Both the position numbers and the translations under genes were made by a program. Positions 1 through 37,259 of a DNA stretch of 64,000 nt are shown here, in pieces. A model generated the notes under the pieces. It did no database searches. It was not told the DNA's origin and worked only from the letters and a program-made list of their open reading frames with translations. Positions within the stretch are counted from its first letter, which is position 1. Each line of letters begins with the position of its first letter. Source of the DNA: Candidatus Moraniibacteriota bacterium (GTDB taxonomy: Bacteria > Patescibacteriota > Minisyncoccia > Moranbacterales > GCA-2747515). The DNA lies in contig CP175956.1 in the NCBI GenBank assembly GCA_046116545.1, forward strand, positions 257,734-321,733, given 5' to 3'.

Positions 1-135
1 AACATTTCTTACAACAACCATTATAATAGACGCTAATACACCAATAATTGCTATCACAATTAGAAGTTCTATTAAAGTAAAGCCTTTTTTCTCACCTCTA
101 TTTTTATTTGTTTTATTATTTCTTTTACAAAACAT
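1..135 (-). CDS. type IV pilin/pseudopilin, N-terminal fragment (gene continues past window start)
   Basis: Minus-strand ATG is the reverse complement of 133-135. Translation: MFCKRNNKTNKNRGEKKG|[27 protein letters not shown]... This shows a class-III prepilin signal (G^FTLIEL, Glu at +5) and a hydrophobic helix. No stop occurs before position 1. It is absent from the ORF track because it is truncated. Confidence 0.6.
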   Translation of the reverse strand, partial: MFCKRNNKTNKNRGEKKGFTLIELLIVIAIIGVLASIIMVVVRNV

Positions 136-197
136 TTTTTAAAAAAATAAATTAGTAAAAATTATTCTTTTCTATTTACTTTGATAATAACATGAAA

Positions 198-1130
198 CTA
201 CAAAACATGCTCGAAATATTTTATAGTTTTTTTAAGTCCCTCTTCAATTTTAATTTTTGGTTTCCAATCCAACTTTTCTTTTGCTAATGTAATATCTGGT
301 TTTCTCCTCTGTGGATCATCTTGTGGCAATTCCATATAGACTATTTTACTTTTTGAACCTGGAACCATTTTAATAATCTTTTCTGCTAACTCCTTAATAG
401 TAAATTCATCAGGATTCCCCATATTAACAGGACCTACAAAATCAATATCATTATTCATCATACGTACAAAACCTTCAATTAAATCATCAATGTACTGAAA
501 GCTTCGTGTCTGAGAACCATCTCCATAAATTGTTATATCTTCATTTTTCAAAGCTTGTACTATAAAATTTGATACTACTCTCCCATCATTTGCGTGCATA
601 TAAGGACCATATGTATTAAAAATACGCACAATACGAATATCTAAATTATGCTGTCGATGATAATCACAAAATAATGTTTCTGCACAACGCTTTCCTTCAT
701 CATAACAAGACCTAACACCTGTTACATTCACATTGCCACAATAATCTTCAGGCTGTGGATGCACTTCTGGATCACCATACACCTCTGATGTGGAAGCCTG
801 CAAAATCTTAGCACCTGTGCGTTTTGCAAGTCCAAGCATATTTATAGCACCATGAACAGAAGTTTTAGTTGTTTGTACGGGATCATGCTGATAATGAATT
901 GGAGAAGCTGGACAAGCTAAGTTATAAATCTGATCTACTTCCACATACAATGGAAACGTCACATCATGTCGCAACACTTCAAACTTATAATTATCTAAAA
1001 GTCCCTTAATATTTTCCTTGCTACCTGTAAAAAAATTATCAAGACAAAGAACATCATGTCCATCATCTAGTAATCTTTTACATAAATGAGTGCCTACAAA
1101 TCCTGCTCCTCCAGTTACCAATATTTTCAT
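198..1130 (-). CDS. UDP-glucuronate decarboxylase / UDP-xylose synthase (NAD-dependent SDR epimerase/dehydratase family)
   Basis: 310 aa. N-terminal Rossmann motif [16 protein letters not shown]. The YxxxK-type SDR core and overall pattern are typical of UXS/ArnA-like decarboxylases. Confidence 0.8.
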
Positions 1131-1135
1131 ACTTT

Positions 1136-2395
1136 TTATTTAACAAATTTTTTAATAATATATCGTAACCATACGATTCCAATACTGTAATTTATTATAA
1201 GACCGATTAATAAAACCTCAATTGAAAAAATATCTAAATACACCATCAATCCCAAATAACTCATCATTAAAATAACCCTGACGAATAAAGAAATTATTCC
1301 TTTTAAAAAAATCCTATTCGAGTATGTTGCTATGACTGGCCAATATAAAGATGATGCAAAAACTACTGTACCAAATAAGGCGAAGAGAATGGCATATATA
1401 ATATTATACACAAAACTACTGCCATACAAAACTATTGCTACAGAAACACATGCAAACAAAAAAAACATAATAGGAATAAATCCAATCTTTAAAATATGAT
1501 CTATCCTTTTTGCAATTGATGCTTTATTTTTATGACCTGAAGTATATACAAAAAAAACATTATGTAAAATCATAGACAAAAAGCCTGAAATAACAATAGA
1601 AGATGTGTAGTATGCAGAATATAAACCGAGTGCATCCAATCCCATATATCGTTTTATGAACATTTTATCTACTAAGACAAAAACTGTTGTGAGTATTGCG
1701 ACTACCACAAATAAAAAACCTAGTTTCAATAACTTTTTTATATAGTTGATGCGGATATACTTTATATTTATTTTTTTTCTAAGTATAACTAAAAAACATA
1801 TAGATATGAAAAATCCACTAATAATCATGGCTTCAATGAAACTTATAGCTGTAAGACTCTCAGTTACAAAAAAAAGTAAAAATGACATTACTAAAATAAG
1901 TATTGCATCTAAAATACGAAAAAATACTTGCTGTTTGAATAAAAAAAGCCCCCTTGATATTCCATCAAAAAATAATCGTAACCCAACACTAATTGATAAT
2001 AAGAATATCAAAGCAACCATTATTTCATCAAGAATAGCAAAATTAAATATCACAAAAAATAATATGCTATATAGACAAATACTAACTAAAATAGCAAATA
2101 CAGCAGATGATATATATTCTTTATGCTTTTTTGCATCAGATGCCAGTTTCTTAGCTATAGCAACATCTAAACCGCTTGTTACAACAGTTCGGAGTGCTTG
2201 TGCTGCAATGATGACAATACTAACAATTCCATACTGTTCAACACCTAATTGTCTACCAATGAATATATTAACAAAAAACATTATTCCACTTGCAATGGAA
2301 ATACCTAAAAAAGATAGAATTAGATCATTAACAATTTTTTCATTTTGTAATTCAATCCCAATTTTTTGTAAATTTTTTATAATAATTACATTCAT
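1136..2395 (-). CDS. polysaccharide flippase-like polytopic membrane protein (MOP/Wzx-like)
   Basis: 419 aa with about 12 predicted hydrophobic segments. It sits inside the glycosyltransferase cluster. The 4-bp overlap with the upstream GT gene (2392-2395) suggests co-translation. Confidence 0.55.
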
Positions 2396-3447
2396 ATACT
2401 AACTATTTCTTTATATCTTCTGAGCTTTAAATAAAAAATTGTAATTTTCCCCAACAAAACACTTTTTGATTTTTTGATTTTTTTTTGCATTATATCAACT
2501 TCCTTTTTTGATAATTTTTCATGTAACTTTATTGTATCTTTATATTGTTTCATTAACAACTGACAAGCATTTTCTATAGAATGTTCTTTTTTGATAATTT
2601 CATAAATGTCTATAGCAATGCTTGGATCGTATTTCTGTAATAATTGTTCAAAAGATTTTTGATTTATTTGTTTTTGAAACCTTCTGCCTGAAAAATTATT
2701 TTCCCTTACTTTATAATATTTTTCCACTGTAATAAATCCATCTGAACCATGTTTATCATAAATGATTACGTTACGCTTACAAGTCATCGCCTCTATAGCA
2801 CCTTTACCTAACGTCACTACGATATCTGCCCTATTTATATAATTTTCAACATTATCAACCATATTTTCTGGTAAACCAACATGAACTAGTGATATATCAA
2901 GCTTACTACAAACTGACTCAATGATATGTTTTACATTTTTAGTATAATGATTACTAATCACAAGAACATTTTTCAAAACAGAATTTACCTTTTTATGTTC
3001 TTGAAAACGAACAAAATCTACAAAATTTCTAATAATACTAATTTTTTTTATATCAATATTGTGCCTTTTCACTAAATTATCACGCACTTCTTCACTCACT
3101 GCAACATATGAAGTAATGTTAATATCAATAAATGGAGGTTGTTCTATTTTTGGTAAAACACCATGTGACATAAATATCATCGGAACATTCGGAAAAATAG
3201 CTCTAGTAAATATTGCTACTATATTATGATGAGCATGTATTATATCAAAATCAATATTTGCAATATCAAGAAGATTACTAGTAACATGGATGCCATCATC
3301 AAAAATATCTTGCCCACTCATGCCTATTAGTGGGCTATATACAAATACTTCATACTTACTTTTGTGAAAATACCTTGCTATATCTATTACATAATTTTCA
3401 GTTCCAGCATAATTTAAGAGAGAGTAATTTGTAATTAAAATTTTCAT
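2392..3447 (-). CDS. putative glycosyltransferase (GT-B-like N-terminal domain)
   Basis: 351 aa. The N-terminus resembles the GT4 N-domain. The C-terminus is K-rich and atypical. The gene is embedded between the flippase and the GT2 gene. Confidence 0.4.
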   Translation of the reverse strand: MKILITNYSLLNYAGTENYVIDIARYFHKSKYEVFVYSPLIGMSGQDIFDDGIHVTSNLLDIANIDFDIIHAHHNIVAIFTRAIFPNVPMIFMSHGVLPKIEQPPFIDINITSYVAVSEEVRDNLVKRHNIDIKKISIIRNFVDFVRFQEHKKVNSVLKNVLVISNHYTKNVKHIIESVCSKLDISLVHVGLPENMVDNVENYINRADIVVTLGKGAIEAMTCKRNVIIYDKHGSDGFITVEKYYKVRENNFSGRRFQKQINQKSFEQLLQKYDPSIAIDIYEIIKKEHSIENACQLLMKQYKDTIKLHEKLSKKEVDIMQKKIKKSKSVLLGKITIFYLKLRRYKEIVSI

Positions 3448-3495
3448 ATTAAAATTGTACCATATGCCAATGCATACGCAATGTAAATAATATAT

Positions 3496-4518
3496 TTATT
3501 TCTTTTTTGACTTAAAAAAATTAATTCCGTATTCATCAAACCAACTAGAGATATCTCGTACAGTTTTTCCTTTCTGAATGGAAGTTCTTTTTCTTAATAG
3601 TTTTCTAAGATTGATTCCGACATCCCATATTCCTCGTATTGTCACAATAGCTAGATCCTTGATACTAATATTTTTTCGAAATTTACTAACGGTACCTTTT
3701 TTAAAAAAAGAGAGCACTAGTAAATAAGGATACCGTATAAAAGATAATAAAATTGCCCTACAAAAATATACAAATGGATAATTTTTAATTATATTATAAA
3801 ATAAATTTCTATTGGTATAAAATGCAATAAATTCAGAATACCCTCCAGAAGTAGCATTTTTATGATGATATACTACCGCCTCTGGCATATACATGCATCT
3901 CCATCCACGCAACCGTGCTCTCCATCCCATATCCAAATCTTCAAAATAATATTCATAATCCTCATCAAAAAACATTCCGTCCTGTTTGATATCATTAAGA
4001 AGTCTTGCTGTAAATAAAGCTGCTGCTCCAGTCGGACAAAATACTTCACACTTTTCATTTGCCATTTTAGATTGTTCATTTAATAATCTATTCACTGCCA
4101 TACCATCTGAACTTATTTGCAATCCAGTAGAATCAATTTTATTTTTCTCATTATAAAATAAAACTTTTGGTGCAACCATTTCAATCGATTTGTTCTTGTC
4201 TATACCATCAATCAACTCTGTTAAAAATTTTGGTGCAACTTCTGTATCATTATTAAGTAATATAATATTTTCACTTCCTTTATCTATAGCTTTTTGAATT
4301 CCTACATTATTTGCTTTACAAAATCCAGAATTATAACCCATAGCTACTACCATCACATCTTCAAATTTTTCTTGCATTATCTGTATAGATGAATCTTCAG
4401 AACCATTATCCACAACAATAACATCAAAATTGTCATGATTCATCAAAAAAACTGATGCTAAGCATTTTTCTAATAATTCTTCTTTATTATAATTAACTAT
4501 AATTATTGCATTTTTCAT
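3496..4518 (-). CDS. family 2 glycosyltransferase
   Basis: 340 aa. Motifs IIVNYNKEELLEKCL..DVIVVDNGSEDSS and a DxD-like region match the GT-A fold of the GT2 family. Confidence 0.8.
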   Translation of the reverse strand: MKNAIIIVNYNKEELLEKCLASVFLMNHDNFDVIVVDNGSEDSSIQIMQEKFEDVMVVAMGYNSGFCKANNVGIQKAIDKGSENIILLNNDTEVAPKFLTELIDGIDKNKSIEMVAPKVLFYNEKNKIDSTGLQISSDGMAVNRLLNEQSKMANEKCEVFCPTGAAALFTARLLNDIKQDGMFFDEDYEYYFEDLDMGWRARLRGWRCMYMPEAVVYHHKNATSGGYSEFIAFYTNRNLFYNIIKNYPFVYFCRAILLSFIRYPYLLVLSFFKKGTVSKFRKNISIKDLAIVTIRGIWDVGINLRKLLRKRTSIQKGKTVRDISSWFDEYGINFFKSKKK

Positions 4519-4527
4519 CCTTCTTTT

Positions 4528-5685
4528 TTACAGATTTATATAATATTTTTGAATTATTTTTTGCATTCTTTCATATGAATACTTTTGAACTATTCTTACA
4601 GAATTCTGTGACATTTCATTTAACATTTCATTAGATTCACCAAATAACAATAAATTGCTTTTCTTATACACATCTTCTACATCTTTGCACACAAAGCCAT
4701 TTTCATCATTATTAATAAGTTCTTTTGCCGCATTATCTGGATAATCAATGATTAAAACAGGTACTCCACATGCATTTGACTCGATTACAGTAATTCCAAA
4801 TCCCTCCCGCTCAGACAACTGTATCATCAATTTTGCTGACTTAATTCTAGATATTAATACATCATAATCATCAATGAAATTAATAAACTCAATATTCTCT
4901 GATAACTTATCTGAAAGAATTTTTTCTTTTATTATTTTATCATCAGGACCCTCACCTATAATTAAAGCTTTTATATTATGATTATCAAGTTTAATTCTTT
5001 TAACAATATCAATAATATGTTCAACATGCTTGTGAGCAATAATTCTTCCGTAATAAATTATATCATACTTTTTATATTGATTTGAAACTTTATTAATCCT
5101 ATCAATATCAACACTGATTGGAAAAATTGTCATGATTTTCTCTTTATCTTTCCCAAATGCCCATTGAAGTTTATCTTGTGTAAAATAAGAATTTGCAATA
5201 ATTTTATCACATGATATATAACTAATTTTCTCTAAAAAAACTCCAATAAACCAAAAAAATCCATAGTACTCATGCCAGTATTCCTTTCCCCAATATTCTG
5301 CCCAATAACCCACAATAATGGGCTTTTTCCTTTTAAATATACTTGCTAACCTAGCTGAAATAACTGGAAAATATGGAAAGATTTCTATATCTAAGATATC
5401 ATCATCTGACTTTAATACGTAAAAAAAAGTTGCTATTCCAAAACGCATACTAGACAATATATTCCTTTTACCATTTTTTTTATAGATTTGCGACTGTGAA
5501 CATATACTAATATAATTAATATTTTTAACAAATTTTTCACTGTCTTGCCACCATTTCATAGATACAATTGAAACCTCAAATTGATCTAAATTTTTTAAAA
5601 TTTTAGAATACTCAAAAATTCTTTTTTCTTGTCCACCTATAAAATATGGGTATACCTTATCAGTGATAAATGCGATTTTTTTCAT
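4528..5685 (-). CDS. family 4 (GT-B) glycosyltransferase
   Basis: 385 aa. The C-terminal motif EGFGITVIESNACGVPVL.. is the EX7E-type GT4 signature. Confidence 0.8.
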   Translation of the reverse strand: MKKIAFITDKVYPYFIGGQEKRIFEYSKILKNLDQFEVSIVSMKWWQDSEKFVKNINYISICSQSQIYKKNGKRNILSSMRFGIATFFYVLKSDDDILDIEIFPYFPVISARLASIFKRKKPIIVGYWAEYWGKEYWHEYYGFFWFIGVFLEKISYISCDKIIANSYFTQDKLQWAFGKDKEKIMTIFPISVDIDRINKVSNQYKKYDIIYYGRIIAHKHVEHIIDIVKRIKLDNHNIKALIIGEGPDDKIIKEKILSDKLSENIEFINFIDDYDVLISRIKSAKLMIQLSEREGFGITVIESNACGVPVLIIDYPDNAAKELINNDENGFVCKDVEDVYKKSNLLLFGESNEMLNEMSQNSVRIVQKYSYERMQKIIQKYYINL

Positions 5686-5693
5686 AGATTCTT

Positions 5694-6605
5694 CTATTTC
5701 ATTCTATTCATTAATACAACAAGTTCATCATGTCGTCTTTTAATAGAACTAAGTATTAACCCTGCTATAAAACTGATAAAACTTGCTAAAATCAAAAATC
5801 CTGATACAACTAGTGATGGAATATGTGATACAATGCCTGTTTCAAAATACCCCTCTAAACTATACCATCCTAGGACAAAACTTAATGATGATAAAATAAA
5901 TGCTAATATTAAAAAGAAATGTAATGGCTTATAATCTCTAAATAGTGACAATACTGTATATAACACTATTGTTCCATCTTTTACTGTATTTAATTTTGAA
6001 TCACTTCCATCAGACCTTGGTACAAGTGAGATTGGAATTTCTCTCACTATACAACCTCTTTCTATAGCTTGAATCATTATTTCAGGTTCAATTCCAAATC
6101 CACCCGCAAGAATTGCTGTTGACTGCACGAAATCCTTATTCATTGCCCTGAGACCTGATTCCATATCTCTAAATTTTGTAGCAAAACAAATATTAAGTGA
6201 CATCGTAAGAAATTTATTTCCCCACCAATGACTATTACTAAATGCTTTTGTATTATCAATATGTATTCTATCTCCGACTACCATATCAGCCATTCCTTCT
6301 AGTATTGGTTTTATGATCTTATGTGTATCATTTACATTATACGTATCATCACCGTCAATAAGTACTAAAATATCTCCATCAAACTCATTAAAGATTTTCT
6401 GTACAGCAAAGCCCTTTCCCTGTTTTTTTTCAAAGAATACTTCTGCGCCAGCCTTTTTTGCAATCTCTCGAGTTTTGTCAGAAGAATTATTATCAACAAC
6501 AATTATATGAGAATCTGGTAATTCCCTTTGAAAATCTCTTATAACTTTTTCAATTGTTTTTTCCTCATTATAACAAGGTATTCCTATAACTATTTTTTCA
6601 CTCAT
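5694..6605 (-). CDS. polyprenyl-phosphate sugar synthase (GtrB/DPM1-like GT2 with C-terminal TM anchors)
   Basis: 303 aa. Motifs IGIPCYNEE..VVDNNSSDKT..DGDD form a GT2 catalytic domain. Two C-terminal hydrophobic helices follow, as in GtrB/dolichol-phosphate mannose synthases. Confidence 0.75.
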   Translation of the reverse strand: MSEKIVIGIPCYNEEKTIEKVIRDFQRELPDSHIIVVDNNSSDKTREIAKKAGAEVFFEKKQGKGFAVQKIFNEFDGDILVLIDGDDTYNVNDTHKIIKPILEGMADMVVGDRIHIDNTKAFSNSHWWGNKFLTMSLNICFATKFRDMESGLRAMNKDFVQSTAILAGGFGIEPEIMIQAIERGCIVREIPISLVPRSDGSDSKLNTVKDGTIVLYTVLSLFRDYKPLHFFLILAFILSSLSFVLGWYSLEGYFETGIVSHIPSLVVSGFLILASFISFIAGLILSSIKRRHDELVVLMNRMK

Positions 6606-6609
6606 ATTT

Positions 6610-8289
6610 TTATTTCAATTTAAATACGGTAAATTCCATAAACCTACCTTTGAACTTATCAGATTTAAACGATTGATAGTTCTCTACTAAATCTTTATTT
6701 AATAAAATTGTAGTTGTTAATTGTGTAGATGAAGATACTAAAAATTTTGCATCAAAATCATTTTTTATAGAATTTATAATCTTTTTACTATTTTCTTTTT
6801 CAATTTGTTTCTTTACAGAATCAGGCTTTCCTTCTAAATATTCTCTTATATCATTAACCTCTTTTTTACAATCACCTTTATTCTCACAATAATAATTATA
6901 TCTGAAAATGTTATAATACTTCCAGTATAATGATTCATCATAACCTTTCAATGTCATAGGTTCAATCCCTGTTGAATATGAATTGTATGAATTTGCAAAA
7001 AATAGCGGTGTAAATAAGCTCCAATTATCTACAAAAACATGATCTCTCTTCTCTGATTTTTTTTCAATCCAACTTGCAACGTTTTTTATAGGTTCTACAT
7101 CAAATTTATTTGCCTTTTCATACATATCTACACAAGCATTAAATACCATAAATAATACAAATATCACAATAGCTACTTTTATAAATTTTGCTAATGATGT
7201 CTCAATCTTAATTAACTTATTATCCAACAAATATGTACTCAGAATTGCTGTCAATAAAAATATGCTTGGTACAAAAAAATCAAAAAATCTTCCACTAAGT
7301 TGTATCGATCCAAACACAGTAGCTATTACAAATATGAATAAGCTATAAATCCAAATACCCTCATTACCCTTTAATTTTAATACACCTCTTTTCTCACTTA
7401 CATAAATAAATATAACAGTTGTAACACAAAATAATAATAATGCTAGCAATATTTTTTCGTTCACAATTCTGCTCATAAAATCAATGGACTGTAACTCAAC
7501 TCCACTTAATGAAATTGATTCAACTTCAACATTTGATTGAATCGCCATTATTGAATTTATAAATTTAAATGCTGAACCAGGAAATCCCGGAAAGAAAGCA
7601 AGTCCTATAAATATTGCTATTACAGTTGCTATAAAATTCTTAATATACATTTTTTGTTCAACTAAATATCTTGCAGTCTCTGCAATACAAACCATGACCA
7701 ATGGCATGAAATATGTTGATTGATGCCACAATACATGAAATATTATAATGAAAAATAATATTTTATATTTTTTTGTAATTATTAAATATAATTCAATAAA
7801 TAATAGAGGTATTATAAGAACAAATGCCCTACCAAGTAATAATCTACTCATAAAGTAAGCAGAACTCATAATAGCTAAAACCCACAAAATTGGATATCTA
7901 ACATTCATTTTTCGCAAAATGAAATAAAATAATGCTAATCCAATGCTGGCATAAAAAGAATCTGCTATATGAATTGCTAACTCCCAATTATTAATATATG
8001 TAAAAGGAATGAGAGAAATTTGATGTAAATTAACAGTATACCGAGCATCACTATTAGCAAGTCCTGATAAATAAATCCAATCAAAATTCTTAACAACTTC
8101 AAGTCCGTCATTTCTTAGAAGACTTGCATACTTAAAATGAAAATAATGGTCATCAACGATAGGATCTCCACTTGAATACACATACATCAAGCTACTAAAT
8201 CCAAACATAAAAACAAAAACAATCATCGACGCAATAAACGGATGATTATTCCAATGGTTTTTAATTTTTCCCACAAAATCACTTATCAT
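6610..8289 (-). CDS. large polytopic GT-C-type membrane glycosyltransferase (PMT/ArnT-like), putative
   Basis: 559 aa with more than 10 TM segments. An acidic DD motif (PIVDDHYF) lies in the first extracytoplasmic loop. A soluble C-terminal domain follows. It is immediately downstream of the GtrB-like synthase, which would supply a lipid-linked sugar donor. Confidence 0.45.
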   Translation of the reverse strand: MISDFVGKIKNHWNNHPFIASMIVFVFMFGFSSLMYVYSSGDPIVDDHYFHFKYASLLRNDGLEVVKNFDWIYLSGLANSDARYTVNLHQISLIPFTYINNWELAIHIADSFYASIGLALFYFILRKMNVRYPILWVLAIMSSAYFMSRLLLGRAFVLIIPLLFIELYLIITKKYKILFFIIIFHVLWHQSTYFMPLVMVCIAETARYLVEQKMYIKNFIATVIAIFIGLAFFPGFPGSAFKFINSIMAIQSNVEVESISLSGVELQSIDFMSRIVNEKILLALLLFCVTTVIFIYVSEKRGVLKLKGNEGIWIYSLFIFVIATVFGSIQLSGRFFDFFVPSIFLLTAILSTYLLDNKLIKIETSLAKFIKVAIVIFVLFMVFNACVDMYEKANKFDVEPIKNVASWIEKKSEKRDHVFVDNWSLFTPLFFANSYNSYSTGIEPMTLKGYDESLYWKYYNIFRYNYYCENKGDCKKEVNDIREYLEGKPDSVKKQIEKENSKKIINSIKNDFDAKFLVSSSTQLTTTILLNKDLVENYQSFKSDKFKGRFMEFTVFKLK

Positions 8290-8373
8290 AAAACTGCAAT
8301 CTCCTCATAATTCAATCTAAAAAATTCTATATACTTGCCATTATTATCAACAGCAAGTATAAGAATTTTCAAA

Positions 8374-8766
8374 CTAACATCCTGTCGGTCCAAATGTACA
8401 ACCTGTTTGTGTACATTGCGCCCAACACTCAGTTCCTCTAAATGTAGCATTATAAGTAAAACTACCATTCACAACATCTGTCGTAAATGCAGCTCCACTC
8501 CAAGCTCCTGATGTCTCTAGCTGTGGCCAATGACCTTCACTATTTGCACATACAGGGCCGTTTGCAACTGAAGTAGGATTGATAATCTCTGCAGAATCAT
8601 CCATACACAAAATTGCAGCTGGTACAGTTGAAGAAATTGATGACTTCACTGATGCATCCTTAGCCTTTTGTCGTGCGCTATTCAATGATACCAAGACAAT
8701 AGATGCCAAAATACCAATGATTGCGATTACGATCAATAGCTCGATTAATGTAAAACCTTTTTTCAT
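8374..8766 (-). CDS. type IV pilin (major pilin candidate)
   Basis: 130 aa. Sequence MKKG^[20 protein letters not shown] carries the prepilin peptidase site. The C-terminal half is Cys-rich. A GGAGGTG ribosome-binding site lies upstream and the gene has its own upstream intergenic region. Confidence 0.85.
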
Positions 8767-9067: not shown

Positions 9068-10276
9068 CTATAATTGTCCTGCTATATTGTATATTGGTAA
9101 TAATACAGAAAATACTAATACACCAACACCTAGACCAAGGAATACTATCAATATTGGTTCTATTATTGATGATAAATTCCTTGTTATTTGATCAACTTCT
9201 GCATTATAAAACCTAGCTATATCAGTTAAGATATCACTCAACCTACCTGTTTCTTCTCCAATTTTTATCATACTTGAAACCATTGGCGGAAACTCTTCAT
9301 GTTTAAAAAATTCTGTATTTATATCCCCTCCCATCTTAACGTCTTGAGCTGCTTTTAATATTATATTTTTATACACTATATTATCTACAACATCTGCAAC
9401 CACTATAAGAGCTCTTACAATAGGAATTCCTCCTTGTAATAACACTGATAGATTCTCTGTAAATCTAGTTATGTATACGTACCTAAACAACTGTCCAACT
9501 ACTGGTAATTTCAATTTAACCTTATCCCATTCTTTACTACCATCTTCACTTTTAATATAATAGATAATTCCTGCAATAACACCAAAAACTACAAGTAATA
9601 TTGCCCACCAATACACCTGCATAAAATCTCCAATTTTTATCATTACACCAGTATACCAAGGTATCTCTACATCCAAATCTCTAATTACTCCAGTTAATTT
9701 TGGCAAAATCCAAGTCATTGTAAGAAATCCTATTACACCAGCAACACTAATAACAAATGCTGGATACATTAATGCTCCCTGGATCTTATTTTTCAATTGA
9801 TAATTCTGTTCAGCACTTTCTGCAACGAAATCAATTGCTCCTTGCAAATTACCCGAAACTTCACCAGCACGTATCATACTTATTGCCAATGTTGTAAATA
9901 TTTTTTCGTGTTTTCCAAAAGCTTCTGAAACTGACATACCATCTTCAACATCATTTGCCACTTCTGCAATCACAAGCTTTAATTGTGCATTTTCTGTCTG
10001 ATCATGAATCGTTCTTAGAGATGGTGCTATTGGAATTTTTGCACCAACCAACGTTGAAAACTCTCTGTAAAATAACAGGAGATCTTTATTATTTACAGAT
10101 GAGGTTAATCTTTCTATCATACCTGCAGCTGATTCACTTTGCTTTATTTCCTTTATCTGTAATGGTATTAAATCATTCTTTTGCAATAATTGATTTGCCA
10201 TCTCTTGATCAACAGCATCAATATTACCTCGCTTAATCTTACCTTCTCTAGTTTTAGCTTTGAATTTAAATTGCAT
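9068..10276 (-). CDS. pilC: type IV pilus assembly platform protein PilC (GspF family)
   Basis: 402 aa with two GspF-like repeats and three TM segments. It sits in the pil operon. Confidence 0.85.
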   Translation of the reverse strand: MQFKFKAKTREGKIKRGNIDAVDQEMANQLLQKNDLIPLQIKEIKQSESAAGMIERLTSSVNNKDLLLFYREFSTLVGAKIPIAPSLRTIHDQTENAQLKLVIAEVANDVEDGMSVSEAFGKHEKIFTTLAISMIRAGEVSGNLQGAIDFVAESAEQNYQLKNKIQGALMYPAFVISVAGVIGFLTMTWILPKLTGVIRDLDVEIPWYTGVMIKIGDFMQVYWWAILLVVFGVIAGIIYYIKSEDGSKEWDKVKLKLPVVGQLFRYVYITRFTENLSVLLQGGIPIVRALIVVADVVDNIVYKNIILKAAQDVKMGGDINTEFFKHEEFPPMVSSMIKIGEETGRLSDILTDIARFYNAEVDQITRNLSSIIEPILIVFLGLGVGVLVFSVLLPIYNIAGQL

Positions 10277-10301
10277 AGTTTTAATTTACAAATAGATATT
10301 T

Positions 10302-11402
10302 CTATTCTTCTATATGAATTTGTTCCCCACGTCCAACTAACATTCGTACATAATCCCGATTTTTTGCATATGTCATAGCATGATCTAACGTAATATCACC
10401 TGCCTGTAATAATTCAGCTAATGATTTATCAAGAGAAATCATACCTTCTTTTTGAGATGTTTCTATAACTGTATCTATTTGGTATGTTTTATCTTCACGT
10501 ATTAAATTTTCAACTGCATTATTTTTTATCATTATTTCTACAGCTGGTATACGTCCACCATTTGTATGAGGTATGAGCCTTTGAGACATTACTCCTAAAA
10601 GTACATTTGCTAACTGCGAACGCACTTGATTTTGTTGATGTGATGCAAATGAATCAATAATACGATCAACTGTTTGTGATGCATCATTTGTATGTAAAGT
10701 TGCAAAAATTAAATGTCCTGTTTCTGCTGCTGTAATAGCTGTACTAATTGTCTCAACATCACGCAACTCACCTAATAATATTACATTGGCATCCTCACGG
10801 AGTGCTGCACGAAGTGCACCTGAAAAACTTTGTGTGTCCTGCCCAAGTTCACGTTGATTAATAATGCAACGATCCTGCTCATACATATACTCAATAGGAT
10901 CTTCAATTGTTACAATATGATGTTTTTTATTATGATTAATGTAATCAATAAGTGCTGCTAATGTTGTTGATTTACCATGTCCCATAGGACCTGTTACAAG
11001 AAATAACCCTTGTGAAAAATTTGCAAACTCATACACAAGTTGTGGCACACCAAGTTCCTCCAAGGGATGAATCTCACTGCTAATAACACGCATAACAACA
11101 CCAACATAACCTCTTTGATAAAATACATTTGTACGAAAACGCACTTTATCCTCCAAGCTATATGCAAAGTCAACTTCACCGTCTTTGACAAATTGTTCTT
11201 TGGTATTCGAAGTCATAAGGTATTCAGCATATTGCTTAGTATCATCTGGAGTAAGTACTGCCTCTTGCTCTAACGGAATTAACTTACCATCAATTCTAAA
11301 CGTTGGATGTCGTCCTACTGCAAAATGCAAATCAGATGCATTTTGTTGTGCACCCAACCTTAATAAATTTTTGATTTTTTGTTCTACATGTAAAGAGCTC
11401 AT
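10302..11402 (-). CDS. pilT: twitching-motility retraction ATPase PilT
   Basis: 366 aa. Walker A GPMGHGKSTT, Asp box, His box and the AVENLIRE motif match the PilT/PilU family. Confidence 0.85.
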   Translation of the reverse strand: MSSLHVEQKIKNLLRLGAQQNASDLHFAVGRHPTFRIDGKLIPLEQEAVLTPDDTKQYAEYLMTSNTKEQFVKDGEVDFAYSLEDKVRFRTNVFYQRGYVGVVMRVISSEIHPLEELGVPQLVYEFANFSQGLFLVTGPMGHGKSTTLAALIDYINHNKKHHIVTIEDPIEYMYEQDRCIINQRELGQDTQSFSGALRAALREDANVILLGELRDVETISTAITAAETGHLIFATLHTNDASQTVDRIIDSFASHQQNQVRSQLANVLLGVMSQRLIPHTNGGRIPAVEIMIKNNAVENLIREDKTYQIDTVIETSQKEGMISLDKSLAELLQAGDITLDHAMTYAKNRDYVRMLVGRGEQIHIEE

Positions 11403-11440
11403 TTTATATTTTAATTTTAATTTTATAATCTTCTTTATAT

Positions 11441-11830
11441 TTATATCATATACTTCTCAACTTTTGCCAATACTTCGGTTGGAGTAAAATGTGATTTTAT
11501 CAAAAAATCTTTTGCACCTAAATTAATTCCTTTATCAACATCTTCTTTTTGAGATAAATTTGTCAATAAGACTACTGGAATTTTTTTCCATTCTTCATTA
11601 TTATTTATTGCCTCCAATACATCAAAACCATCCATATATGGCATAACAATGTCCAGTAATAAAATATTTGGACGAACTCCTTCTTCAAGTTTTTCTATTG
11701 CTTCACGACCATTATTTGCCAAAATAACATTATAACCAGCATCCTTAAGTTTAACTTCATAAATATCACCTATGAATGCATCATCCTCTGCAATCATTAT
11801 CGTCTTTTTATCTTCACTCTCCTGATTCAT
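11441..11830 (-). CDS. single-domain response regulator (CheY-like receiver)
   Basis: 129 aa. Residues MIAEDD..LLLDIVMPYMDGF..K form a receiver domain with the phospho-acceptor Asp. There is no output domain. Confidence 0.8.
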   Translation of the reverse strand: MNQESEDKKTIMIAEDDAFIGDIYEVKLKDAGYNVILANNGREAIEKLEEGVRPNILLLDIVMPYMDGFDVLEAINNNEEWKKIPVVLLTNLSQKEDVDKGINLGAKDFLIKSHFTPTEVLAKVEKYMI

Positions 11831-11853
11831 ATAGATTTGACTTAATTATAAAA

Positions 11854-13611
11854 TTATTCTTGATTATCTTTATGACCTGATTCTTTGTGCATTTGATCTT
11901 CATCCTCTATTTCATCCAATTTACCACCAATGCTCATATCTCCCTCTGTTACTCTTTCTAATTCAGTTAAAGTAGTTAGTCCTAATAACATTTTTAGTAT
12001 ACCATCTTGTTTCAAAGTTATATACCCCTTACGTCTAGCCAACGCATCTACTTTTGGCATATTTCCATCTTCTTCTGTTATTAAATCCTGCATTTCTCTA
12101 TCAATATCAATTGCTTCATACAATGCTAATCTACCAACTAATCCTAATTTACCACATTTTTTACAACCCTTACCATGATGAAACTTAAAATCTGCATTTG
12201 GATCAAGTCCATACTTTACCATTTCAGCATCATCAACACCCACTAATTCACTTTTAATTTTTTCTATAACATTATCAGGAATTGTTATTTCTTCTTTGCA
12301 ATGTTCACATATCTTTCTTACCAATCGCTGTGCAGCTATAACTCTAACGGCAGATGCTATCAAGAATGGCTCTATACCTAGATCAATTAATCTAGGTAAT
12401 GCTCCAACCGCATTGTTTGTGTGAACTGTAGAAAATACAAGATGTCCTGTAAGAGCAGCATGCACACCAAGCTCAGCTGTTTCCCCATCACGAATTTCAC
12501 CAACCATTATCACATTTGGATCCTGACGTAATATACTCCTAAGTCCACTAGCAAATGTATATCCAATCTCAGGCTTTACTTGCGATTGATTTATTCCAGG
12601 TACAAAATATTCTACAGGATCTTCCAACGTAATAATATTTCGTTCTTCTCCATTTAATATTTTCAAAAATGCATACAAAGTTGTTGACTTACCAGAACCA
12701 GTTGGACCAGTTATAAGTATCATTCCAAAGGGATCCATAATTCTTTCCATGAACATATCGTATTGCGTACCCATCATACCTAATTCTTTCAAATCAAATG
12801 TCTGTCTATCTTTTTCTAAGACACGCATAACAATTTTTTCACCCTCAACAACAGGCAGACTCGAAACACGAAAATCAATATCATTACCCTTATCATTTAT
12901 TCTAAAACGTCCATCTTGTGGTTTTCGTTTTTCGTCAATTTTTAAATTTGAAAGAATTTTTATCCTAGAAATAACTGCCTTTCCAACTTCTAAAGGAAAT
13001 GTTAGTGAAGAATGCAATATTCCGTCCTGCCTGAATCTTACTCTATATGTCTTGTCTATCGGTTCAATATGAATATCAGAAGCCTTTCCATCTAATGCAT
13101 GTTTTAATATAACATGTACCAATTTAGCAACTGGCGCATCCTGTAAACTTTCTCGCTCTCCTATTACACTTATATCATCTTTTGCATCCTCGCCTTCAAC
13201 TTCAAAAGCCATGACCACATCATCCACGGCTTCTTCAGCACTACCATACAATGCAAGTAATTTATATAAAATTTCCTGTGTAGTTAGGTAAATTTCTATA
13301 CCCATCCTATCTTTCTGTGCAATAAATCGCAACATGTTGAGAGTATTTATATCTTGAGGATCCAACATTGCAACATGTAAAACTTTACCCTCCTCATCTT
13401 TACTAAAAACAGCCATGTTATTTTTTCTAGCTATTTCTTCTGACAAAATCTGTATTGATTCTTTATTTGCTCCACTAGGAAAATCAACCAGAGACTTCAC
13501 ACCCATATCCTCCGCTCGTTCTTGTAACTCTTTAGTGTCTTGAGATACATTATCATTACTAACAAGCTCTTCATCCTGCTTTTCTTTTTTTATATTATTT
13601 TCTTCGGTCAT
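11854..13611 (-). CDS. pilB: type IV pilus extension ATPase PilB (GspE family)
   Basis: 585 aa. Walker A LITGPTGSGKSTT is present. The C-terminal tetra-Cys motif (CEHC...CKKC) matches the GspE zinc finger. Confidence 0.9.
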   Translation of the reverse strand: MTEENNIKKEKQDEELVSNDNVSQDTKELQERAEDMGVKSLVDFPSGANKESIQILSEEIARKNNMAVFSKDEEGKVLHVAMLDPQDINTLNMLRFIAQKDRMGIEIYLTTQEILYKLLALYGSAEEAVDDVVMAFEVEGEDAKDDISVIGERESLQDAPVAKLVHVILKHALDGKASDIHIEPIDKTYRVRFRQDGILHSSLTFPLEVGKAVISRIKILSNLKIDEKRKPQDGRFRINDKGNDIDFRVSSLPVVEGEKIVMRVLEKDRQTFDLKELGMMGTQYDMFMERIMDPFGMILITGPTGSGKSTTLYAFLKILNGEERNIITLEDPVEYFVPGINQSQVKPEIGYTFASGLRSILRQDPNVIMVGEIRDGETAELGVHAALTGHLVFSTVHTNNAVGALPRLIDLGIEPFLIASAVRVIAAQRLVRKICEHCKEEITIPDNVIEKIKSELVGVDDAEMVKYGLDPNADFKFHHGKGCKKCGKLGLVGRLALYEAIDIDREMQDLITEEDGNMPKVDALARRKGYITLKQDGILKMLLGLTTLTELERVTEGDMSIGGKLDEIEDEDQMHKESGHKDNQE

Positions 13612-13617
13612 ATTTTT

Positions 13618-14313
13618 TTATGGTAAAAATGGATTTACACGCTCTTCTGGTTCTGATTTTAGAGTATCTGTTTCAGCAGTTGAATTTTTTACAATATTTA
13701 TCAAATCTATATTTACATCATCTCCAATTTGACTGGATGTTATTGTCGCAAGTCCTGGCACAAAACCATATGTGAATGATATTACACTACTTAATGTTAA
13801 ATTCTGTTGCACCTCACCATCCTCAGAATCTTTATCAGCCTTAGTTAAATCAATCGATTTAAAAGAATATAATCGTTTCATATGAAATAATTTATCAGAA
13901 AAATCTTTCAGCTCCTCATACGTCCCATTAACTATCATTTTTCCTTCCATATATTTAGTTGTGGCTGCATCTTTACTATTTGAATTTATATCACCACCAG
14001 AAAAACCAATGGAAAATAAATTAACATTTGACTCCTCTGCTAATTGAGAGATATCACTAAGTAATATTTCTTCACGAGGATCATTTGGAACAAATTTCAA
14101 AACATATGCATTCTCTTCTGGATGAGATTCTATATCTTTCTTGAATTGTTCAGTCTTAGCTGCGTCATCCCTAATTATTTGCAATTCGACTTGTTTTTTG
14201 ACAATTGTATTTTGTGTTGAAGTAATAGCCTTTGATGTAGGTACTATATGAGCTATAGCAAAATACAATATCAAAAGTATAATAGCTGGAAACATTAACA
14301 TTTTTATAATCAT
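13618..14313 (-). CDS. PilO-like pilus alignment protein (putative)
   Basis: 231 aa with a single N-terminal TM and a periplasmic domain. It follows the PilM/PilN-like genes in the order pilM-N-O. Confidence 0.4.
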   Translation of the reverse strand: MIIKMLMFPAIILLILYFAIAHIVPTSKAITSTQNTIVKKQVELQIIRDDAAKTEQFKKDIESHPEENAYVLKFVPNDPREEILLSDISQLAEESNVNLFSIGFSGGDINSNSKDAATTKYMEGKMIVNGTYEELKDFSDKLFHMKRLYSFKSIDLTKADKDSEDGEVQQNLTLSSVISFTYGFVPGLATITSSQIGDDVNIDLINIVKNSTAETDTLKSEPEERVNPFLP

Positions 14314-14340
14314 ATTTTTATTTTAAAAAAATTATTCTTT

Positions 14341-15282
14341 TTATTCTTGCACTTTATCTTCCGAAATAGTCTCTTCATCTTCTTCTCCTACGTCTCCTGA
14401 TTCTGTCTCATTAGATTCTATTGATTCTTCTGTATTATCATTTGTCTGAGTATCTTCATCAACTGCCATTTCATCACTTGCACTACCCACATTTTCTTGA
14501 GTAATATCTTCTGTTGGAGTTATTATTTCCACATTTTCTTCACCAATAATACCAAAATGAATTTCCTCCAATGCTTTATCTTCAAATGGCGAAATATTCC
14601 CTCTATTTACATCCATTGTTAATGTAAAAATAATACGTCCGCTATCATCCCTATCAGTTGTTCCAATTTTTACATTATCAAAATAATACTTTTTTGCCAG
14701 CATATCATCTCCATCATCGCCCTTTAACTGTTCAATCTCCAAAATTTCCTCATCAACATAACCCACATTTTTTAATGTCTCAATTTGTTGTGCCATGACA
14801 TCAAAAGTGTCTGCATCAGCTGTAATAGTCACACTTCCTAAGGATTTTATCGTTGCATCACCATCTTTAAATTGTTTTTTTGTACTTGAACCAGTGCTAT
14901 ATTGATATGACTTCAATACAACACGATTTCCAGAATCATCAGAAGATTTTTTAATCATTGATTTTTCCAATATTTCTAAAATATCATTTGAATCATATCC
15001 ACGATATAATTCTTTTTCCATAGTGTATGACCTTGAAGCAATATCTTTAATTTCATCCGAAAGAGCATTACTTGCAGCTATTCCTTCTGCTGTTATTTCA
15101 TTTTCAATTTTAGCAACCTCTTTTTCTAGAGATTTTTGTTTCATGTCCAAAAAAAACCAAGCTGCTATTGTAATAAGTAAAAAAATTGTACCCATCGCAG
15201 TACCCTTTGAAACTGTTTTATTACGAGCTTTTACTTTATTATCTTTTTCTGACGAACTTTGAAATCCTATTCCAGAAACCAT
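14341..15282 (-). CDS. PilN-like pilus alignment protein (putative) with highly acidic C-terminal tail
   Basis: 313 aa. An N-terminal TM is followed by a coiled coil (EKEVAKIENEI). The last ~60 residues are D/E-rich low complexity. Confidence 0.45.
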   Translation of the reverse strand: MVSGIGFQSSSEKDNKVKARNKTVSKGTAMGTIFLLITIAAWFFLDMKQKSLEKEVAKIENEITAEGIAASNALSDEIKDIASRSYTMEKELYRGYDSNDILEILEKSMIKKSSDDSGNRVVLKSYQYSTGSSTKKQFKDGDATIKSLGSVTITADADTFDVMAQQIETLKNVGYVDEEILEIEQLKGDDGDDMLAKKYYFDNVKIGTTDRDDSGRIIFTLTMDVNRGNISPFEDKALEEIHFGIIGEENVEIITPTEDITQENVGSASDEMAVDEDTQTNDNTEESIESNETESGDVGEEDEETISEDKVQE

Positions 15283-15326
15283 ATATTTATTTTTATGTTA
15301 CTTATATTTTATTTATCTTCAAATAT

Positions 15327-16403
15327 TTACTTTTTATCCTCCAAATCACGTAAAGCAAGTCCTATGGAGACAGACAACAAATTCCCTAATTCTTTTATAT
15401 TTCCTGATTTTTCTTCATCAAAAACTATGTGACTAAGTGGATTACCTAAAACAACTTTTAATCCAGTCATTTTTTCAAAAAATTCAGGCAATCCCACAAG
15501 TTCAGCTCCTCCGCCACAAAGCACTAATTCCTCTATTTTATTACTTCGTTGCGCACTCAAAACTCTTTTTATCTCATTGCCTATATTACTAAGTGATGGA
15601 AATCCAATTTTTGCTGGTCCTGAAAAATAATTTTCTCCATTTTTTTTCAAAGAAACAGCTTTTTCTCTAGAAATGTTCATGCCCTGCATTATTGCATTTG
15701 TAATATTTACCCCACCAATATCAACGCTTCTATTTACTGATACAAGACCATCTTCTACAAAAACTATATTTGTAGTCTTTGCTCCAAAATCAACAAGTAC
15801 AAACCGACCTTTCGTATTCCCTATAACTGACCTAACTAGTGAAAATGATTCTAACTCCAAAGTTGAAATTGACGTACTGACTTTTTCAAATAAACTATCG
15901 TAATATTGAACTTCACTTTTTGGAGCTGCTACCAACAACACCTTCATATTTTCAGAACTTCCTGTTTTTTGATTTATACCATCATCCGCTGCTTCAACTG
16001 CATCCTTTTTTTCCTCAATAATTTCCCAACTAACATTAACCTCGTCCAAAGATGCTGGTATATACTTTTGAGCCTCAAATTTCATTGCATCAGAAAGCTC
16101 TTTTTCATTCATTCTTGGAAAATCAATAACCATAACAAGTCCATTGAAACTTGGTATTGCAACAGTTGCTTTTTTTGTATGAGGTTTCATCTGGATCAAT
16201 AACTCACCCAACGCATCTTTCAATCGTTGTGCATAATCACTATCATATGCATCAGGTGTTTCCTTCACATTAGTAACATCAACCCATCCATAATTAACTA
16301 GATGCGCTTTTCCTTTAACCATCTTTAACTCAACAGCCTTTATTGACTGTGTCCCAAAATCTATTCCTAAAGAATATTCTGATTTAGACGAAAACAATGA
16401 CAT
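15327..16403 (-). CDS. pilM: PilM, actin-like ATPase of the type IV pilus inner-membrane subcomplex
   Basis: 358 aa. N-terminal GIDFGTQSIKAVEL and GGG motifs match the FtsA/PilM ASKHA fold. It is the first gene of the pil operon. Confidence 0.8.
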   Translation of the reverse strand: MSLFSSKSEYSLGIDFGTQSIKAVELKMVKGKAHLVNYGWVDVTNVKETPDAYDSDYAQRLKDALGELLIQMKPHTKKATVAIPSFNGLVMVIDFPRMNEKELSDAMKFEAQKYIPASLDEVNVSWEIIEEKKDAVEAADDGINQKTGSSENMKVLLVAAPKSEVQYYDSLFEKVSTSISTLELESFSLVRSVIGNTKGRFVLVDFGAKTTNIVFVEDGLVSVNRSVDIGGVNITNAIMQGMNISREKAVSLKKNGENYFSGPAKIGFPSLSNIGNEIKRVLSAQRSNKIEELVLCGGGAELVGLPEFFEKMTGLKVVLGNPLSHIVFDEEKSGNIKELGNLLSVSIGLALRDLEDKK

Positions 16404-16467: not shown

Positions 16468-17541
16468 CTATTTTGCACTTTTAACTGCTGTTGCTTTTTT
16501 TTCATCTGTATTTTGTTCATCTGCTTTACCATTTTTTACAGCCTCATGAACTTCCTTCATTATGGCATTTAATACCTTTTCATTCTGATTTAATTCTGTC
16601 TTAGCTTTCTCTCTACCAACACCTAGTCTATCTTCCTTATAACTATATGAATGACCTTTTTTTGTTATAACACCATACTCAACACCAACATCCAATACAT
16701 CTCCAGCAAGTGAAATTCCTTCATTATACATAATATCAAATTCTGCAATTTTAAATGGCGCTGCTACTTTATTTTTTACAACTTTCACTTTTACATGATT
16801 TCCTACTATCTCATCACCTTTTTTAATCTGAGCAGCTCGCCGAACATCTAGTCTAACAGATGAATAAAACTTTAAAGCATTTCCACCAGTTGTTGTTTCT
16901 GGACTACCAAACATTACTCCAATCTTCATCCTGATTTGATTTATAAAAATCACAACACAACTTGATTTTGCAATGACTGGAGTAAGCTTACGCATTGCCT
17001 GACTCATAAGCCTCGCATGTTTACCCACATGATAATCTCCCATATCACCATCAATTTCTGATTGAGGTGTTAGTGCTGCCACAGAATCAATAACCACAAC
17101 GTCTACAGCACCCGATTTAACAAGTGTTTCTACTATATCTAGAGCCTGTTCTCCTGCGTCAGGCTGTGAAACCAATAATTCATTTATATTTACACCTATT
17201 TTTTGTGCATACTCAGGATCCAATGCATGCTCAGCATCCACAAAAGCTGCTACGCCACCATTTTTTTGTGCATTTGCTGCAATATGTAAAGCTAGCGTTG
17301 TCTTTCCAGAAGACTCTGGCCCATAAATTTCAACAACACGACCACGTGGAACTCCACCAACACCAAGTGCAATATCAAGTGACAATGCTCCTGTAGAAAT
17401 TGTATCTACATCAACCCTCTTAGCATCCCCTAGCTTCATAAGCATTCCATCTCCAAATTTAGTACGAATCTCATCAACAACAGCATCAACTCCATTATCT
17501 TTTTTCACATCATCATTCTTCATATCTTTCTTTTTTGCCAT
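16468..17541 (-). CDS. recA: recombinase RecA
   Basis: 357 aa. Walker [13 protein letters not shown] and the conserved L1/L2 loop regions are unambiguous. Confidence 0.95.
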
Positions 17542-17621
17542 AAAAATAATTTATATTAATTATATCCCCATGCATCCCCATCATACATAAATTTGTTTAC
17601 TTAATTTATTATAGCAAATAT

Positions 17622-18629: not shown

Positions 18630-18698
18630 AAAACACTATCAATTCAGCAAATTATATATACCTATCCCAGAAAATACTATTCAAACAAAATTAATTTG

Positions 18699-35247: not shown

Positions 35248-35334
35248 CGGAGAGGGAGGGATTCGAACCCTCGAGGCCCGTAAAGACCTAACACCTTAGC
35301 AGGGTGCCCTATTCGACCGCTCTAGCACCTCTCC
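35248..35334 (-). tRNA. tRNA-Ser (anticodon GCU)
   Basis: Reverse complement: GGAGAGGTGCTAGAGCGGTCGAATAGGGCACCCTGCTAAGGTGT..GGTTCGAATCCCTCCCTCTCCG. The acceptor 7 bp and anticodon loop CTGCTAA are present. A long variable arm is typical of class II tRNAs. The discriminator is G. CCA is not encoded. Confidence 0.85.
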
Positions 35335-35433
35335 ATATTTGTATTCAATTGTACAAAAACTAGTGTATCATCAAATATGCTACAAATCAAGTTTTATGTT
35401 ATCATTTATATAATAATCTTTTAAATAAAAAAT

Positions 35434-36174: not shown

Positions 36175-36181
36175 CTAAAAT

Positions 36182-36216
36182 AAAAAACAACCTACTAATA
36201 GGTTGTTTTATATTTT
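36182..36216 (+). terminator. rho-independent terminator
   Basis: Sequence AAAAAACAACCtactaataGGTTGTTttatatttt. Confidence 0.55.
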
Positions 36217-36219
36217 CTG

Positions 36220-36292
36220 TGTCCTTGGTAGGAGTTGAACCTACGACCTTTTGGACCGCAACCAAACGCTCTATCCACTGAGCTACAAGGAC
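36220..36292 (-). tRNA. tRNA-Arg (anticodon GCG)
   Basis: Reverse complement: GTCCTTGTAGCTCAGTGGATAGAGCGTTTGGTTGCGGTCCAAAAGGTCGTAGGTTCAACTCCTACCAAGGACA. The anticodon stem is TTTGG/CCAAA and the loop TTGCGGT gives anticodon GCG with G37. It is 73 nt. Confidence 0.75.
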
Positions 36293-37172: not shown

Positions 37173-37259
37173 TATATTATTTTTATTTTTCTAAGTATTA
37201 ATATATTAACATATTTACAAAATCCTTGCTACCTGTTATGATATATCTTGTAGTTGACT

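Follow-up and report, generated by a model that had tools for sequence, protein, structure and literature searches.

Known three-component systems that modify polysaccharides include Gtr in enterobacteria and CsbB/GtcA/YfhO in Firmicutes. In this general scheme, a GT2 enzyme synthesizes a polyprenyl-phosphate-linked sugar, a flippase is involved, and a GT-C glycosyltransferase acts outside the membrane (PMC11127046). The group IV pilin glycosyltransferase TfpW of Pseudomonas aeruginosa, a GT-C protein with 11 transmembrane (TM) helices and an essential DDx motif, is encoded immediately downstream of pilA and O-glycosylates serine and threonine residues of the pilin, drawing on a sugar that is linked to polyprenyl phosphate and brought by a small flippase (bioRxiv 10.1101/2020.04.19.049825). 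In Haloferax, a glycan is begun on dolichol monophosphate by AglJ and extended by further cytoplasmic transferases; the Wzx-like AglR has a part in flipping, and transfer on the outside falls to a membrane enzyme (PMC3871713). Here, we analyzed a 64-kb stretch of a Candidatus Moraniibacteriota genome (contig CP175956.1; hereafter the window) in which two type IV pilin genes bracket seven genes, one of them encoding a 559-aa GT-C glycosyltransferase of an unclassified family. We consider it probable that this cluster encodes a lipid-carrier-dependent extracytoplasmic glycosylation system, nested in the pilus locus, whose most likely substrates are the flanking pilins.

TfpW, as described in the literature, offers a close parallel. 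As in TfpW, the GT-C gene of the window lies directly downstream of a pilin gene, and its product is an N-in protein with 11 TM helices, a DD motif in loop 1, and a large external C-terminal domain; a polyprenyl-phosphate-linked sugar donor and delivery by a flippase are proposed for the window system as well. However, the C-terminal domain of TfpW is made of tetratricopeptide repeats (TPR), whereas that of the window protein is a 166-aa alpha/beta domain with no Protein Data Bank (PDB) neighbor. The donor of TfpW comes from the DprE1/DprE2 arabinofuranose pathway, whereas that of the window system would come from a DPM1/AglJ-like GT2, and Pfam searches found no DprE-like gene in the cluster. 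Compared by description in this way, the window system is best read as a putative functional analogue of TfpW with a new enzyme family.

The Gtr-type systems (GtrA/GtrB/GtrV, CsbB/GtcA/YfhO, and pentofuranose systems) follow the same synthase-flippase-GT-C logic, but those that are known modify O-antigen, teichoic acids, or cell wall polysaccharides, whereas the window system lies among pilin genes. Moreover, no GtrA homologue was found among the cluster genes with Pfam; a Wzx/MOP protein is present instead, together with extra cytoplasmic transferases. The Agl pathway of Haloferax volcanii (AglJ, AglG/I/E, AglR, and AglB/AglS) has the same parts list as the window, although it is archaeal, N-linked, directed at the S-layer, and dependent on the STT3-type transferase AglB. 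PglB, STT3, and AglB (GT66) share with the window protein an acidic residue in external loop 1 and a conserved Glu in a flexible external loop, but the window protein has no STT3 Pfam match, its sequence contains no WWDxG motif, its C-terminal domain is unrelated, and NxS/T sequons are not enriched in pilins near window-type GT-C genes. Finally, PglL/PilO (TfpO) is encoded by an accessory gene next to pilA and glycosylates pilin from a Wzx-flipped lipid-linked donor, which is the role proposed here, but these are Wzy_C/WaaL-type proteins, and for the window protein neither a Wzy_C match nor a match to such a fold was found. The tests run place it outside GT66, the GT39/83-type Pfam families, Wzy_C, and EpsG.

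The cluster is nested within a conserved type IV pilus locus

The first 21 kb of the window (G+C ~30%) is coded on the minus strand. In the direction of transcription, the gene order is pilM-N-O-B-T-C, pilin, cluster, pilin, PilD (the prepilin peptidase), minor pilins, and a LamG protein; in L005, a locus of the same organism, PilD, the minor pilins, the LamG_3 protein, and a DNA ligase come after the second pilin. With pilC to pilM on one side and PilD and the minor pilins on the other, the cluster lies within the pilus locus, not just next to it. An earlier note on this DNA, made from the sequence alone, had placed the cluster immediately upstream of the full pil operon; the adjacency holds, but the direction does not, as the cluster lies downstream of pilM to pilC in transcription. 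The two flanking pilins are the sole pilin-like open reading frames (ORFs) in the 64-kb window.

A metagenome scan seeded on two GT-C motifs alone returned 41 loci at 23 to 44% identity, which were annotated using our own ORF caller, phmmer seeds, and a pilin-motif detector. Counts were restricted to non-redundant loci whose GT-C gene had at least 3 kb of sequence on either side, 19 in all. Among these well-flanked loci, pil genes were present in 16, and in 14 the GT-C gene had a pilin ORF no more than 1 kb away. Run on 140 kb of control DNA (the remainder of the window plus five loci without pil genes), the same detector gave no pilin-like ORF.

The order of the machinery genes is repeated in L001 to L004 and L008 to L012, and the nesting is repeated in Moraniibacteriota relatives with one to three tandem GT-C copies of 43 to 48% identity. 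At 26% identity, L014 reads pilin-GT2-methyltransferase-GTC-pilin-PilD, and at 20% identity, L021 reads pilin-GTC-GT2-GtrA-pilin-PilD-minor pilins-ligase. Loci differ in internal order: the GT2 gene may precede or follow, lie on the opposite strand, or be fused, and there are one to three GT-C copies; despite this reshuffling, the slot of the GT-C between the pilin gene(s) and PilD is kept in most loci, down to ~20% identity. A very distant member, P0185, adjoins a different T2SSE/T2SSF/pilin operon in convergent orientation. The co-occurrence of GT-C and pilin genes envisaged by the earlier note is therefore seen in most related loci, and the cluster was not found to be conserved elsewhere without pilins.

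The 559-aa protein has a predicted GT-C fold with a conserved external DD motif

The 559-aa protein gave no Pfam or NCBIfam match, and an identical protein in a Candidatus Moraniibacteriota metagenome-assembled genome (MAG) is annotated as "hypothetical protein." Its AlphaFold (AF2) model, built from an alignment of 35 homologues, reached a mean predicted local distance difference test score (pLDDT) of 87.8 and a predicted TM-score (pTM) of 0.87. When compared to the PDB with Foldseek, this model matched PglB, STT3 (yeast and human), DPY19, AftA, ALG12, and ArnT (E of 3e-7 to 3e-3), with 18 GT-C chains at E ≤ 1e-3, all with a probability of 1.00 and TM-scores of 0.43 to 0.61. The closest whole-model matches were PglB/STT3 (E of 3e-7, for PglB, to 6e-5; TM-scores of 0.46 to 0.61). 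No WaaL, Wzy, SEDS, or PglL-type chain was present among the top 50 matches, and searching all PDB chains with the family's sequence profile gave no meaningful match. A GT-C fold is thus predicted with high confidence, as the earlier note had proposed, and AlphaFold and Foldseek gave no indication of a Wzy_C polymerase or ligase in its place. The profile search suggested at the outset was carried out for PMT, PMT_2, STT3, and Wzy_C and extended to YfhO and Dpy19; none of these Pfam families matched any of 62 family members at E ≤ 0.1. The distant member P0150 bears the UniRef name "RgtA/B/C/D-like," yet had no match in the Pfam scan.

Hydropathy and the positive-inside rule gave an N-in, C-out topology with 11 TM helices, in which D46 and D47 are located in the first external loop (64 residues, acidic), in agreement with the external position first assigned to the DD motif. 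In alignment A3, D46 is invariant and D47 reaches at least 90% conservation, a level that both residues reach in A2. In an alignment reaching 19 to 20% identity, positions conserved in at least 90% of sequences were D46, D47, F96, R154, E265, R334, and the pair C468/C474. E265 sits in a low-confidence, flexible acidic external loop (residues 253 to 278) with an amphipathic helix alongside. Residues 394 to 559 form the external C-terminal domain, a mixed alpha/beta fold with four strands that carries the C468/C474 pair. Modeled alone, this domain reached a pLDDT of 93.5, and because a fold search found no PDB neighbor below E 0.1, we consider it to be neither of the STT3/PglB type nor a TPR domain.

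A GT2 synthase and a flippase accompany the GT-C

The top curated match of the 303-aa GT2 encoded next to the GT-C was archaeal AglJ (3.9e-65; 220 bits, below the equivalog cutoff of 325 bits), and its best solved relative was the Pyrococcus dolichol-phosphate-mannose synthase 5mlz (1.4e-10). The enzyme is much nearer to archaeal models than to bacterial ArnC (3.6e-5), and no bacterial polyprenyl-phosphate sugar synthase other than ArnC matched it at E ≤ 1e-3. Natural proteins in which an N-terminal GT2 is fused to a GT-C were found among distant members (P0098, P0099, P0118, P0147, and genes in L046, L048, and L060), and in P0099 the GT2 portion shares 32% identity with the 303-aa GT2 of the window (E 2e-33). 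Furthermore, a GT2, separate or fused, stands beside the GT-C in 16/19 well-flanked loci. Because of these fusions and of this frequent association, we see strong genomic evidence that the GT2 would make the lipid-linked donor for the GT-C. The fusion proteins independently corroborate the GtrB-like plus GT-C pairing that had been proposed for the window. One of them, P0099, is adjoined on a short contig (L016) by a gene for a conjugative pilin of the TrbC/type IV secretion system type, not a type IV pilin (2915-3256, minus strand).

A GtrA or Wzx flippase gene was found in many related loci, with GtrA in L021, L034, L036, L038, L039, L041, L046, and L060. The minimal relatives L021, L036, L038, and L039 contain exactly GT2, GtrA, and GT-C. 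Rather than all seven genes, the conserved core comprises the GT-C, the GT2, and a flippase, either GtrA or Wzx; the other transferases, the methyltransferases, and the UDP-xylose synthase vary between lineages. The latter enzyme is identified by full-length similarity to a characterized one, human UXS1 (4gll, 2b69; E 1e-121 over residues 2 to 307), and is an extended short-chain dehydrogenase/reductase (SDR). Since no close UXS orthologue was found in any related locus examined, with only distant SDR matches in L023 (1e-38) and L041 (7e-28), xylose appears to be a lineage-specific option. Of the earlier suggestion that the glycan might contain xylose, the synthase gene stands; the sugar is at most an optional decoration.

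The pilus-associated enzymes belong to a large family

An exhaustive profile search recovered 1,948 family representatives at 50% clustering, 1,183 of them at E ≤ 1e-10; they make up a large, uncatalogued GT-C family. Named members belong to Moraniibacteriota, Harrisonbacteria, the "Parcubacteria group," the "Patescibacteria group," and one Armatimonadota. A second homologue search with A2 gave the same 38 proteins, and a scan of genome contigs with alignment A1 gave six loci only, all Moraniibacteriota-like. Because some family members sit outside pilus loci, the pilus association belongs to the subfamily with motifs DD[HEQ]xF[HY][FI][KR] and LYWKYYNI and not to every remote relative. Full-text literature searches on pilins and glycosylation or glycosyltransferases in Candidate Phyla Radiation (CPR) bacteria, Patescibacteria, or Parcubacteria gave no description of this enzyme family.

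Two or three tandem GT-C paralogues, 40 to 48% identical to the window protein, are present in L001, L002, L003, L004, and L012, while the window has one; such copies suggest that more than one sugar, site, or pilin substrate is involved. Under the name "Micavibrio sp.," two deposited MAGs (L008 and L010) carry a Moraniibacteriota-type pilus/GT-C locus with a GT-C of 51 to 52% identity, and their taxonomic label looks wrong.

Pilin features and proposed mechanism

The second pilin, complete in L005 (10996-11448), has 150 aa and an 18-residue leader followed by G/FTLIELL. This leader is unusually long and basic (MFCKRNNKTNKNRGEKKG), and that of the first pilin has four residues. A KSSISSTxP stretch is common to Moraniibacteriota pilins only, and Ser plus Thr account for 23% of the globular parts of GT-C-adjacent pilins. 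In 33 such pilins, 65 NxS/T sequons were observed versus 66.6 expected (z of -0.24), and several pilins had none. N-glycosylation by an oligosaccharyltransferase-like enzyme is considered unlikely on the basis of these sequon counts, the missing WWDxG, and a C-terminal domain that is not STT3-like. With N-linkage rejected as the default, an O-linkage is assumed.

We propose a mechanism in four steps. The 303-aa AglJ/DPM1-like GT2 would first load a nucleotide-sugar-derived sugar onto polyprenyl phosphate on the membrane's cytoplasmic side. The cytoplasmic GT4, GT2, and GT4-like enzymes may then extend the lipid-linked sugar, with UDP-xylose as one possible donor in this lineage, and the Wzx-type flippase (GtrA in minimal relatives) would take the lipid-linked glycan to the outer face. 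Lastly, the 559-aa GT-C would move the glycan to Ser/Thr of the membrane-anchored pilin, before or during pilus assembly, with the conserved DD46-47/E265/Arg cluster acting in catalysis at the membrane-outside interface. The fold, the GT2 link, and the pilin neighborhood support the pilin O-glycosylation put forward in the earlier note. Gene context points to a pilin acceptor and to an O-linkage; the donor sugar, and transfer as a single sugar or as an oligosaccharide, are put forward in the same conditional sense.

The extra GT4, GT2, and GT4-like enzymes of the window can act only on lipid-linked intermediates. They may lengthen the product of the GT2 to a polyprenyl-monophosphate oligosaccharide that the GT-C would transfer en bloc, a parts list matching that of the Haloferax Agl pathway, or they may serve a separate glycan. 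An Agl-like pathway in a bacterium, started by the AglJ-like GT2, extended by the GT4 and GT2 enzymes (with xylose in this strain), flipped by Wzx, and completed by GT-C transfer of the whole oligosaccharide to pilin, is a rather unlikely form of this mechanism.

Counterevidence and alternative explanations

Several points weigh against the proposed pilin glycosylation. Among the 19 well-flanked subfamily loci, three (L027, L049, and L050) lack pil genes within 5 to 8 kb, and none lie near the GT-C genes of the distant relatives L063 (Armatimonadota) and L064 (Harrisonbacteria), the latter of which still has a GT2 neighbor. The loci are not phylogenetically independent, and the conserved position could partly reflect inherited gene order. 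No conserved acceptor motif was found in the pilins adjoining the GT-C. The extra GT4, GT2, and Wzx genes of the window would also fit a separate polysaccharide pathway, and weak EpsG (PF14897) matches were obtained for 14/35 and 15/62 family members (best E of 8.5e-9).

Alternatively, the trio could be an ordinary three-component system acting on a non-protein envelope polymer (teichoic-acid-like, a cell wall polysaccharide, or a glycan of the neighboring genes), with its pilus position due to inherited gene order. Three-component GT-C systems classically modify polysaccharides (PMC11127046; PMC8035078), a Wzx protein with three cytoplasmic glycosyltransferases is typical of polysaccharide loci, and some family members do lie outside pilus loci. 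However, L014, L021, L036, L038, and L039 hold pilins and PilD around the trio and no other polysaccharide genes. Pfam and NCBIfam scans found no priming phosphoglycosyltransferase, chain-length regulator, polymerase, or ligase among the cluster genes of the window, and the pilin-PilD slot is kept while the internal order reshuffles in homologues down to 20% identity. We view an envelope polymer substrate as unlikely.

A general protein O-glycosylation system as broad as that of Neisseria PglL, with pilin as one target among S-layer proteins, adhesins, minor pilins, and the LamG protein, would agree with the nearest structural neighbors of the GT-C (PglB/STT3 and DPY19), which modify proteins, with the lack of a shared acceptor motif, and with the paralogues and out-of-locus GT-C copies. 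The tight, conserved slot between pilin and prepilin peptidase instead suggests a dedicated role, making such a broad system improbable.

Finally, the 559-aa protein is very unlikely to be a Wzy/EpsG-type polymerase in a standard Wzx/Wzy surface-polysaccharide locus, a candidate that the Wzx gene and the EpsG matches would favor but that was rejected, as these matches are weak (25 and 20 bits for P0005 and P0038, the two members rescanned singly, versus a cutoff of 30.1 bits, and none for the window protein), the fold search gave only GT-C enzymes at its top and no WaaL, Wzy, or SEDS chain among the best 50, the DD motif in external loop 1 is conserved, the GT-C is fused or paired with a polyprenyl-phosphate sugar synthase, and minimal loci of GT2, GtrA, and GT-C cannot make a repeat unit to polymerize.

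Gene layout and other features of the window

The nine ORFs of the cluster and its flanking pilins were recovered where the earlier note had placed them, all on the minus strand (Table 1). Domain matches and the cleavage motif bore out the two bracketing type IV pilins, and domain searches likewise agreed with the UDP-xylose synthase, the Wzx-like flippase, the GT2/GT4 enzymes, and the polyprenyl-phosphate sugar synthase.

Table 1. Features of the pilus locus and glycosylation cluster (window coordinates)
Position	Strand	Feature	Evidence or remark
1-135	-	Second pilin gene, N-terminal 45 codons	Equals start of 150-aa pilin in L005 (other assembly, same organism)
198-1130	-	UDP-glucuronate decarboxylase (UDP-xylose synthase), 310 aa	SDR epimerase/dehydratase domains; human UXS1 match
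1136-2395	-	Wzx/MOP-family flippase, 419 aa	Polysacc_synt 1.1e-19, Polysacc_synt_3 6.9e-12
2392-3447	-	GT4-like glycosyltransferase, 351 aa	Glyco_transf_4 1.6e-13; N-terminal domain alone recognized
3496-4518	-	Cytoplasmic-type GT2 (GT2b), 340 aa	Glycos_transf_2 9e-23
4528-5685	-	GT4 (retaining GT-B), 385 aa	Glycos_transf_1 4e-31
5694-6605	-	Polyprenyl-phosphate sugar synthase of AglJ/DPM1/GtrB type, a GT2 with a C-terminal pair of TM helices, 303 aa	AglJ model, Pyrococcus dolichol-phosphate-mannose synthase
6610-8289	-	GT-C fold glycosyltransferase (predicted), unclassified family, 559 aa	AlphaFold model and Foldseek
8330-8361	-	Terminator-like hairpin and T-run between pilin and GT-C genes	Consensus match only
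8374-8766	-	Type IV pilin, 130 aa	N_methyl 1e-8, TIGR02532 3e-10
9068-16403	-	Type IV pilus machinery: pilC, pilT, response regulator, pilB, pilO, pilN-like, pilM	
16468-17541	-	recA	Just beyond pilM

The 130-aa pilin is probably the major pilin and is served by a promoter-like site (8842-8813) and a GGAGG ribosome-binding site, both consensus matches. The seven genes downstream of it are tightly spaced (gaps of -4 to 62 nt), with the start of the GT4-like gene overlapping the Wzx stop by 4 nt. The hairpin behind the pilin gene may be an attenuator, and its presence together with a promoter-like site and a strong ribosome-binding site proper to the pilin would fit a high level of pilin expression and read-through to the genes for modification. 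GT2b and the GT4 gene are both kept in Moraniibacteriota loci.

A stand-alone response-regulator receiver gene (11441-11830, minus strand) lies between pilB and pilT and occupies the same slot in all Moraniibacteriota pilus loci examined, including L001 to L004. Further upstream (16468-21080, minus strand), ftsK and a RodZ-like HTH_25 gene are followed by recA and then pilM. The recA-pilM adjacency is kept in all nine related loci with sequence extending that far upstream, which hints at a link of these pili to DNA uptake or recombination. Just outside the window, the minor-pilin operon ends with a gene for a 499-aa Laminin_G_3/pentraxin-like protein (L005, 14434-15933), a candidate pilus-tip adhesin. 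The variable part of the cluster in L003 (17686-17970 and 19456-20208) and L004 (14876-15625) contains a small GIY-YIG ORF and genes of the TOD1_MUCI70 family, the latter on the opposite strand; this family is best known from plants.

The rest of the window is housekeeping (57415-57843, plus strand; 35248-37346; 40868-47975, minus strand), with a transfer-messenger RNA, three tRNAs, rpoB/rpoC, sufB, ApbE, and a ZIP transporter. Several ORFs of 178 to 426 aa had no Pfam match, and no further glycosylation genes were seen among the scanned ORFs in this part.

Significance for patescibacterial pili

CPR bacteria/Patescibacteria conserve few surface machines, and type IV pili are one of them. Cultivated Saccharibacteria use them to attach to hosts and to move, and the study that describes this gives pilin glycosylation in the group as a software prediction only, naming no enzyme (PMC12206443). 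The subfamily described here is a near-constant resident of Parcubacteria-type pilus loci and provides a candidate enzyme family for CPR pilus glycosylation, with a donor synthase and a catalytic motif, which makes the question directly testable. The concept of pilin glycosylation is not new; what is new is a large unrecognized enzyme family and a testable handle on CPR pilus modification. The family also adds to the GT-C glycosyltransferases a distinct branch with a new external domain. If the Agl-like pathway were true, it would add a new class to the bacterial protein oligosaccharyltransferases, one that has no sequence relationship to either PglB or PglL and is specific to the host-engaging pili of CPR bacteria.

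The accessory genes (transferases, methyltransferases, UDP-xylose synthase, and one to three GT-C copies) vary between close relatives, which suggests that the glycan has diversified between lineages. In Pseudomonas, pilin glycosylation protects against pilus-specific phages (bioRxiv 10.1101/150227), and pilin decoration could likewise shape host attachment or phage evasion of these ultra-small symbiotic bacteria.

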